In this document: positions 21,595-22,237 of the stretch, in pieces
Numbering within the stretch: the stretch's first letter is position 1
Layout: each line of letters begins with the position of its first letter
From: a virus
Lineage: Duplodnaviria; Caudoviricetes
Virus record (IMG/VR): IMGVR_UViG_3300025653_000045
Coordinates: 1-56,031 of that record
DNA length: 56,031 nucleotides
Reading direction: 5' to 3' (one strand)
Position numbers and translations under genes: made by a program
The notes under the pieces: generated by a model
Databases searched by the model: none
What the model was told of the DNA's origin: nothing
The model's input: only the letters and a program-made list of their open reading frames with translations

Positions 21595-21646
21595 GGTACA
21601 CTGATGAGTCCTCAATGGACGAAACACCCTTCGGGGTGTCTGTATC
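21595..21646 (+). ncRNA. Hammerhead ribozyme 1 (type I)
   Basis: Stem I GGTACA/TGTATC, CTGATGA, stem II GTCC-tcaat-GGAC, GAAA, stem III CACCC-ttcg-GGGTG, GTC cleavage triplet ending 21640. Confidence 0.93.
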
Positions 21647-21647
21647 A

Positions 21648-21795
21648 GACATACTGATGAGCGCTGAATGCGCGAAACACCTTCGGTGAAATCGAGGATA
21701 GCTACCTCGACGTAACCAACGCTCCATCCCGTATCACGTGTAAGCCACGGGTCACTGCTGGGTCGCTGACGCAGGGGGCAGAGGGTGTCTATGTC
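21648..21795 (+). ncRNA. Hammerhead ribozyme 2 (type I) with large insert in stem III
   Basis: Stem I GACATA/TATGTC, CTGATGA, stem II GCGC-tgaat-GCGC, GAAA, stem III ACACCTTC/GAGGGTGT, GTC ending 21789. Confidence 0.87.
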
Positions 21796-21815
21796 AAACT
21801 TCAAATTCATTTCCA

Positions 21816-21977
21816 ATGAAAAATTCAAATGTTGAGGCGAGAATCGCCAAGTTGCAAGCCATGGTGGACATGTACCAAGTGTTCGGGGCTGACGCCTACT
21901 TCAACTCCGAGGAGTTCACAAGCTTGTCATGTGATGAGCAGATGATGGTCGAACAAGAAATCGCCGACTTGTCATGA
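21816..21977 (+). CDS. Small acidic early protein
   Basis: Manual 53 aa ORF MKNSNVEARIAK..., ATGA overlap with next gene. Confidence 0.65.
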   Translation: MKNSNVEARIAKLQAMVDMYQVFGADAYFNSEEFTSLSCDEQMMVEQEIADLS

Positions 21978-22198
21978 ATGTGTGGGAACGCTACCCCAAG
22001 TTTGGCACTTCAATGAGCGATTGGATGCCAAAGTCCTGCCCTTCAACGGAGTTCAGGATGATTTACTATCGTGGCCGTGACCGCGACGACTGGGATGACA
22101 TGACGTTCAAGGCGTGGTCGCTCGACCATGCCAAGCAACGGGCACTCGACCTTGTGCCCGACGGATGGACAATCAAGTCCGTCAAGCAGGTACTCTGA
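21974..22198 (+). CDS. Hypothetical early protein
   Basis: 74 aa; stop codon lies in the core of hammerhead 3. Confidence 0.7.
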   Translation: MNVWERYPKFGTSMSDWMPKSCPSTEFRMIYYRGRDRDDWDDMTFKAWSLDHAKQRALDLVPDGWTIKSVKQVL

Positions 22199-22237
22199 TG
22201 AGGGTTTAATACCCGAAACACCTTTGGTGTCAGTATC
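22189..22237 (+). ncRNA. Hammerhead ribozyme 3 (type I)
   Basis: Stem I GGTACT/AGTATC, CTGATGA, stem II GGGT-ttaat-ACCC, GAAA, stem III CACC-ttt-GGTG, GTC ending 22231. Confidence 0.92.

Follow-up and report, generated by a model that had tools for sequence, protein, structure and literature searches.

The genome of a phage assigned to the Caudoviricetes (Duplodnaviria) was found to carry three closely spaced hammerhead motifs that are predicted to cut the RNA in which they are transcribed. The genome, IMG/VR virus record IMGVR_UViG_3300025653_000045, was analysed over its whole length of 56,031 base pairs (bp), which we refer to as the window (completeness estimate, 92%). The motifs, named HH1 (21595-21646), HH2 (21648-21795) and HH3 (22189-22237), all lie on the + strand within 643 nucleotides (nt), where they flank one gene and one two-gene block. 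The best explanation for this arrangement, and in our view a fairly probable one, is that self-cleavage splits the early transcript into independent messages with constant leaders. The idea of transcript cutting is not new: the processing of long phage transcripts into gene-length mRNAs was proposed by Perreault et al. in 2011 (PMC3088659), and the layout has been known in phages since then. In the portion available to us, a 2019 review describes the role of phage hammerheads as still unproven, and that of many hammerheads found in phage genomes as open (PMC6765202).

Both strands of the window were scanned with a descriptor that combines an open stem I with the CUGANGA box, a hairpin for stem II, the sequence GAAA and a stem III that ends in U-H; exactly three type I hammerheads were returned, all on the + strand and placed in intergenic spacers. 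These are the three complete copies that had been called on the sense strand in an earlier annotation made from the sequence alone (hereafter, the original prediction), and every sequence detail given there holds, including the core, loop II and stems that differ between copies and still pair. HH1 is compact, with stems I, II and III of 6, 4 and 6 bp, a UCAAU loop on stem II, a UUCG loop on stem III and a predicted cut at 21640/21641. HH2 begins 1 nt past HH1; its stems measure 6, 4 and 8 bp, the loop on its stem II (GCGC/GCGC) is UGAAU, a branched insert closes stem III and the cut is predicted at 21789/21790. HH3, again compact (6, 4 and 5 bp; predicted cut at 22231/22232), has the stem II GGGU/ACCC and the loop UUAAU, and the first UGA of its CUGAUGA box is the stop codon of the upstream gene (22196-22198). 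The hammerhead core has been described as C3 U4 G5 A6 N7 G8 A9, G12 A13 A14, A15.1-U16.1 and H17 (PMC3088659, in the part accessible to us). All 13 of these consensus positions and the three helices are present in HH1, HH2 and HH3, each of which has CUGAUGA, GAAA, the A-U closing pair, C17 and the type I topology, in which stem I is open and stems II and III are closed; stem II, different in each copy, is paired in each. Stem I is flanked in all three by an A on its 5' side and by a first A on its 3' side, a second 3' A being present in HH2 and HH3, and no extension of stem I or pseudoknot past these residues was seen by eye in the two window copies inspected. Judged by these features, HH1, HH2 and HH3 are most likely genuine cis-acting type I hammerhead ribozymes, with cleavage predicted for each.

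It is extremely unlikely that the motifs are inactive relics or chance look-alikes. With lenient minimum stems of 4/3/3 bp, the full descriptor found a mean of 0.11 matches per shuffle in 200 first-order Markov shuffles, at least one match occurring in 18 of the 200 and two being the maximum; the bare core pattern, present three times in the window against 0.41 expected, reached three in none of 100 shuffles. What speaks for relics or look-alikes is that cleavage is predicted only, and that thresholds were not reached in Rfam 15, none of whose hammerhead models (RF00163, RF00008, RF02275-7 and RF03152) matched at gathering score. The check proposed with the original prediction, a search with Infernal and the Rfam models, did not confirm the hammerheads at that level. 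At E values up to 10, the best sub-threshold match was to RF00008 (32.8 bits against a gathering score of 48.5; 21633-21683), RF03152 (RAGATH-1-hammerhead) matched HH1 with 22.7 bits against 56.3, and HH3 had no Rfam hammerhead match even at E values up to 10. The RF00008 match is a type III reading that fuses the 3' half of HH1 with the core of HH2; this chimera was set aside and is attributed to stem III sequence common to the paralogues. Confirmation did come from a covariance model (R2) built on 121 hammerheads from other viral contigs, with the window and its close relatives L061 and L114 left out, which gave HH1 66.7 bits and HH3 61.7 bits (E about 1e-14) and revealed no further convincing copy over the window beyond HH1-HH3. 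HH2 was matched in its 5' part only (25.8 bits), because of an insert of ~100 nt in its stem III. The failure lies with the Rfam models and not with the motif; according to the part of a 2026 preprint that was available to us, another hammerhead cluster also escapes all six Rfam models (10.64898/2026.10.21.760802). Besides the shuffles and the scores of the leave-out model, the conservation of orthologues with compensatory changes, presented below, argues against relics and look-alikes.

All three copies belong to a sharply defined subfamily whose stems I and II have 6 and 4 bp and whose loop II reads U-N-A-A-U. A search of IMG/VR with the pattern CUGAUGAG-N5-AAU-N3-CGAAAC returned at least 119 loci, and the 119 listed loci together with the window yielded a family set of 194 hammerheads, 176 of them unique; the counts given here and below for the family refer to the matches and loci listed. 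Complete hammerheads accounted for 129 of the 130 pattern matches on viral contigs and for 32 of the 91 in prokaryote genomes, in which ~70 chance matches are estimated (17 fixed bases, 596 gigabases, two strands). This comparison indicates that the motif is real and strongly phage-enriched, and that the descriptor discriminates. Stem I is exactly 6 bp long in 183 and stem II 4 bp long in 182 of the 194 hammerheads, and the first base of loop II, which the pattern leaves free, is U in 175 of 176. An A precedes stem I in 165 of 173 cases; past stem I, the first base is A in 158 and the second in 138 of these 173. From their recurrence in the sequences, the U-N-A-A-U loop and the A residues flanking stem I are candidates for a tertiary contact between stem I and loop II. 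It follows from the Rfam results that the thresholds of release 15 miss a large, canonical subfamily of phage hammerheads. The densest array among the loci listed is found on the - strand of L021 (IMGVR_UViG_3300037466_000798), where seven subfamily hammerheads occur within ~4.5 kilobases (kb), each upstream of a leader of Shine-Dalgarno type.

The placement of the subfamily relative to genes is tightly constrained. Only 11 of the 176 hammerheads lie within an open reading frame (ORF) on the same strand, against 50% of control positions. The cut falls 15-34 nt upstream of the next ATG in 100 of 160 cases, the corresponding share among random positions drawn from these loci being 5.8% (the next ORF is one of at least 40 codons that starts with ATG), and the median distance from cut to ATG is 26.5 nt, against 208 nt for the controls. 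HH2 and HH3 behave in the same manner: as had been claimed, their cuts are positioned 26 and 29 nt before the ATGs at 21816 and 22261, leaving leaders at 21790-21815 and 22232-22260. Between two and seven copies are present in 46 of the 119 loci, on one strand except in L044, and the cut sites in multi-copy loci are 183-2350 nt apart. A Shine-Dalgarno-like tetramer is found in 72 of 141 leaders; the presence of leaders with and without this signal indicates that the subfamily spans hosts with different initiation signals.

On the upstream side, 109 of 160 hammerheads have the preceding stop codon at -9 to +15 nt relative to their CUGAUGA box, and in 28 cases, as in HH3, the first UGA of the box is itself that stop codon. 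Such an overlap could mean that cleavage is conditional, ribosomes that terminate at a stop codon in or near the 5' strand of the ribozyme blocking its folding, and that the cut reports upstream translation, or responds to Mg2+ or temperature, and in this way tunes the downstream genes. A competing local hairpin in HH2 would be compatible with a switch, and regulated cleavage was raised as an option for phage hammerheads in the portion of Perreault et al. available to us (PMC3088659). We nevertheless regard conditional cleavage as distinctly improbable: the overlap of stop codon and ribozyme is equally expected from plain compaction, no conserved ligand-binding or switch element was found, and the insert of HH2 is unique and not notably structured.

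If the ribozymes instead serve to divide the early transcript, as we favour, they would be transcribed together with the small genes that form a + strand block ahead of the replication genes, and each would fold on emerging from the polymerase and cut after C17. Since stem I is open, the folded ribozyme would stay on the upstream RNA, which would end with a stable stem III hairpin one nt from a 2',3'-cyclic phosphate end, and the downstream RNA would begin with a 5'-OH and six nt left over from stem I, and would carry a leader, rich in A, of 26 or 29 nt. The products would be a first-gene unit ending at 21640, a non-coding piece of 149 nt (21641-21789), a two-gene message of 442 nt (21790-22231) and a message from 22232 onward. 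The coding part of the third piece consists of two overlapping small genes on the + strand, of 53 amino acids (aa; 21816-21977) and 74 aa (21974-22198); on the same strand downstream of HH3 are a hydrophobic ORF of 47 aa (22261-22404) and a coupled gene of 56 aa (22401-22571). Each unit would keep a constant 5' leader and its own ends regardless of its neighbours, the ribozyme acting as an insulator or processing site, comparable in function to the RNase III cuts in T7 early mRNA or to the engineered RiboJ part. The motifs, the family they belong to, their placement and their gain and loss between cassettes are observations; we infer both cleavage in vivo and an effect of it on stability or translation. 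The original prediction had the phage cut its early polycistronic mRNA into units with short leaders, by analogy with the RNase III sites of T7; the family-wide spacing and a motif shared between the leaders (see below) lend it indirect support, but the first cut precedes a ribozyme and not a gene. By way of precedent, three arrangements of clustered prophage hammerheads were reported to cleave in vitro and one in E. coli, in the part of the study accessible to us (PMC3088659).

Comparison with relatives shows that hammerheads are gained and lost at gene-cassette junctions. Relatives at ~75-88% nucleotide identity differ in hammerhead content. The 51-aa gene of the first cassette (21432..21587, + strand) ends 7 nt upstream of HH1, and its protein, whose homologues are 71-88% identical in the relatives, was used to fetch loci in a search independent of the ribozyme. 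A hammerhead lies within ~8 nt of the stop codon of this gene in 7 of the 7 loci that extend past it, and the gene that follows differs in at least five ways among the relatives; stem II of the orthologous HH1 copies shows a compensatory change (GUCC/GGAC vs GCCU/AGGC). Nine viral loci encode a counterpart of the 74-aa protein with 64-83% identity; all nine have one hammerhead upstream of that gene block, and none has HH3 directly after the 74-aa gene. Relatives of the L114/L122 type lack HH3, its leader and the 47-aa ORF, and in them a leader and a homologue of the 56-aa gene come directly after the 74-aa gene. Two further relatives, L217 and L218, contain copies of HH1 and HH3, the latter with a compensatory stem II change in L217 (GGCU/AGCC), and lack HH2; their HH1 abuts the leader. 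Measured against L217, the 149 nt of HH2 are inserted exactly, as one whole unit, between these two elements. An assembled contig from an RNA library (X3) joins 21264-21420 to 21845 onward with 18 other letters between, linking the first leader to the region of the 53-aa gene, which indicates that it derives from a relative without the 51-aa gene, HH1 and HH2, that is, without the whole first cassette.

Alternatively, active ribozymes may mainly be portable junction modules, in which hammerhead and leader spread with, or mark, gene cassettes and any effect on expression is small or incidental; the conserved sequence of ~60 nt may itself be a recombination site. This we consider unlikely, although much of the turnover just described is what it would lead one to expect: the 51-aa gene and its hammerhead stand upstream of at least five different genes, HH3, its leader and the 47-aa ORF are shared by the window, L217 and L218 and absent from the nine loci fetched with the 74-aa protein, HH2 entered as an exact unit, and the contig X3 skips an entire cassette. 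The core, however, is kept while the stems covary, suggestive of selection on RNA catalysis and not on DNA homology only, and for a subfamily that occurs in phages with unrelated leaders (Shine-Dalgarno-like in only about half, as counted above) a clade-specific recombination signal is insufficient. A role in cassette exchange is, in addition, compatible with insulation of the messages rather than opposed to it.

HH2 departs from the other copies in several respects. Its minimum-free-energy fold is the canonical three-way junction (-52.7 kcal/mol), and its core resembles the single copy of relative L114, a compact HH2-like hammerhead. The insert in its stem III (21683..21783, + strand) folds no better than shuffles (z = -0.01), has no homologue among 226 fetched loci and no match in Rfam, and one pattern derived from it gave no match in a scan of IMG/VR; the HH1-HH2 junction could be mis-assembled. 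HH1 and HH2 form the sole back-to-back pair among 74 consecutive pairs examined, with cuts 149 nt apart and no gene between them. This geometry raises the question of whether the pair serves to release the 149-nt RNA (21641-21789) as a small RNA or ligated circle, in the manner of viroid-like RNAs and retrozymes, and the sub-threshold type III match at 32.8 bits implies that a hammerhead fold could, in principle, bring the two ends of this piece together. That fold would have a stem I of four weak pairs and a mismatch, and the stem III sequence shared by the paralogues explains the Rfam match. Viroid-like RNAs and retrozymes are bounded by hammerhead cuts, exist as circular or multimeric RNA and recur as repeated elements, whereas the 149-nt unit was seen in this record only: none of the relatives examined has HH2, and its insert shows neither a homologue nor excess folding. 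For the prophage clusters, Perreault et al. report that they found no circular or spliced products, in the text available to us (PMC3088659). We rate the release of a functional 149-nt RNA low, as a very unlikely reading, and the reading of the motifs as inactive relics lower still.

A number of points weigh against the division of the early transcript by self-cleavage, beginning with the Rfam result given above. Activity at cellular Mg2+ is assumed, the contact between stem I and loop II, which natural hammerheads need for fast cleavage at low Mg2+, being a candidate only. Stems I, II and III covary richly across the family, but the count is circular since the descriptor required pairing; support free of this circularity comes from the 129 of 130 figure for viral contigs and from the orthologues fetched by way of a protein. 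Genome compaction alone could account for the tight spacing, a ribozyme and a minimal ribosome-binding region being all that is placed between two genes. That hammerheads come and go at the same junction implies that none is essential for the neighbouring genes. HH2 could be slow or dead, given the competing local hairpin and an insert without relatives. The polycistronic nature of the transcript, its boundaries and its early timing are assumptions. Finally, the RNA evidence consists of assembled contigs, which cannot show cleavage ends: six RNA-library runs contain minor parts of the stretch in this form, and four were aligned to it, with contigs covering 21346-21599 (X1) and 22023-22190 (X2). 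None of the RNA contigs listed spans a cut site, an observation that carries no weight either way on cleavage, since assembled contigs break at repeats and do not preserve transcript ends.

Among known systems, similar arrangements are found in synthetic biology as well as in viruses. The spacing rule and the behaviour of the cassettes fit an insulator role such as that of the RiboJ part. RiboJ was engineered from a plant satellite RNA ribozyme, with an added hairpin. As in RiboJ, a hammerhead placed before the ribosome-binding region would strip upstream RNA context from the gene (PMC6206723, in the part available to us). The clustered prophage hammerheads resemble the present locus in that several occur on one strand within a few kb and flank single phage genes or short blocks of them, whose identities vary; as far as the accessible text describes them, they differ from it in that here a single narrow type I subfamily is found in a lytic-looking phage, with a back-to-back pair and an insert of ~100 nt (PMC3088659). 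The same source, again in part, describes in haloviruses HF1 and HF2 a hammerhead (HHphage) which, as here, lies close upstream of an early gene start, the cut being 13 nt before the start codon and a mapped 5' end of the transcript at most 3 nt from the cut, although the halovirus ribozyme has a variant core, belongs to an archaeal virus and is present as a single copy at the head of the transcript (PMC3088659). Type I hammerheads are also found in short intergenic untranslated regions of eukaryotic RNA viruses, where the cut lies 7 nt before the start codon and yields a separate RNA, confirmed there by rapid amplification of cDNA ends; these differ from the present case in their RNA genomes, their other helix II and loop architectures and their proposed link to cap-independent translation.

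Taken across loci, the data prompt the tentative suggestion that the subfamily could be a natural portable mRNA insulator in phages of many hosts. It would always have the order stop codon, ribozyme, ~20 nt and start codon, would move with cassettes at mosaic junctions, and would give every cassette an invariant leader with a 5'-OH, about as long as a ribosome footprint, and the message before it a capped hairpin. If true, phage hammerheads would thereby gain their first general rule of function. Our literature search found no statement of the spacing rule or of the subfamily consensus, the supplementary alignments of PMC3088659 lying outside that search; the sharp consensus, its invisibility to Rfam thresholds and the spacing rule may be new. 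The locus itself represents no new kind of element. Its value is that of a clean test case for the processing or insulator hypothesis, with three copies in a short early transcript, close relatives in which one or two of them are missing from the corresponding junctions, and a family-wide spacing rule.

The leaders that follow the ribozymes share their sequence with other genes of the same block. The 26-nt leader after the HH2 cut (21790..21815, + strand) contains CAAACTTCAA at 21795-21804 and the 29-nt leader after the HH3 cut (22232..22260, + strand) contains it at 22245-22254. Seven exact copies of CAAACTTCAA are found from 20.7 to 25 kb on the + strand, in most cases with an ATG 16-22 nt downstream, and when one mismatch is allowed the whole window has 18 copies against 6.0 expected; the + strand region considered for these leaders is 20744-25994. 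In this phage clade, a motif (C)AAACTTCAA stands directly 3' of each hammerhead; from 20.7 to 25 kb it also precedes other genes, at 16-22 nt from their ATGs. The leaders are rich in A and contain no Shine-Dalgarno-like tetramer, consistent with a Bacteroidota host.

Three copies of a 39-nt hairpin repeat, at 21347-21385, 22581-22619 and 24621-24659 on the + strand, each lie upstream of a CAAACTTCAA leader, which indicates that the leader follows either a hammerhead or a hairpin. The repeats are predicted to form long interrupted hairpins (-26 to -33 kcal/mol, z about -5) with a 14-bp core and outer pairs, the outer stems covarying, and no T-run follows the stem. In T7, RNase III cuts the early mRNA between cistrons, so that the message before the cut ends in a hairpin and the one after it starts with a short leader. 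These cuts are catalysed by a protein on double-stranded hairpins and generate 5'-phosphate and 3'-OH ends, unlike the predicted RNA-catalysed cuts of the present locus, with their 5'-OH and cyclic phosphate ends. By analogy with T7, the 39-nt repeats may be the true counterpart of its RNase III sites, and they may constitute a second type of punctuation, in the form of an RNase III-like site or a promoter element. In relative L121, one 39-nt hairpin is directly followed by a hammerhead.

With regard to promoters and terminators, a scan for sigma-70 promoters and terminators over 19500-26500 found nothing above shuffles. An extended TTATATTTGCA motif occurs in three copies, at 19736-19765 and 19993-20022 (read on the - strand) and at 37032 (+ strand), two of which are a few nt before an ATG on the - strand. 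We take it to resemble the Bacteroidota -7 promoter box TAnnTTTG. The short TTATATTTGCA motif is not enriched in the window (34 copies against ~32 expected).

The window encodes a portal protein, a large terminase, a primase-helicase, an exonuclease, a ribonucleotide reductase and large virion proteins, the portal, terminase and primase-helicase matches being the basis for the phage context. Many small ORFs followed by replication genes occupy a + strand block at ~20.5-37 kb, flanked on either side by structural genes of the - strand; the phage is podovirus-like and lytic-looking. A nucleotide search of GenBank phages with 20500-24500 gave no match. The terminase is 39-48% identical to those of Flavobacterium phages, Maribacter phages and one uncultured Caudoviricetes phage, and as the 106 records that match it are mostly Flavobacterium and Cellulophaga phages, the host is probably a member of the Bacteroidota. 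No RNA ligase, RtcB or kinase family was detected among the ~30 window proteins scanned, in a scan that was not exhaustive. An ORF of 3041 aa on the - strand (37732-46857), for which a sequence search of the PDB gave no match, contains only a small L5 gp82-like domain (residues 1936-2055) and may encode a giant virion or ejected protein. A gene for tRNA-Arg (anticodon TCT) is located on the - strand at 15401-15475, just downstream of the large terminase gene, with an Rfam score of 72.2 bits.

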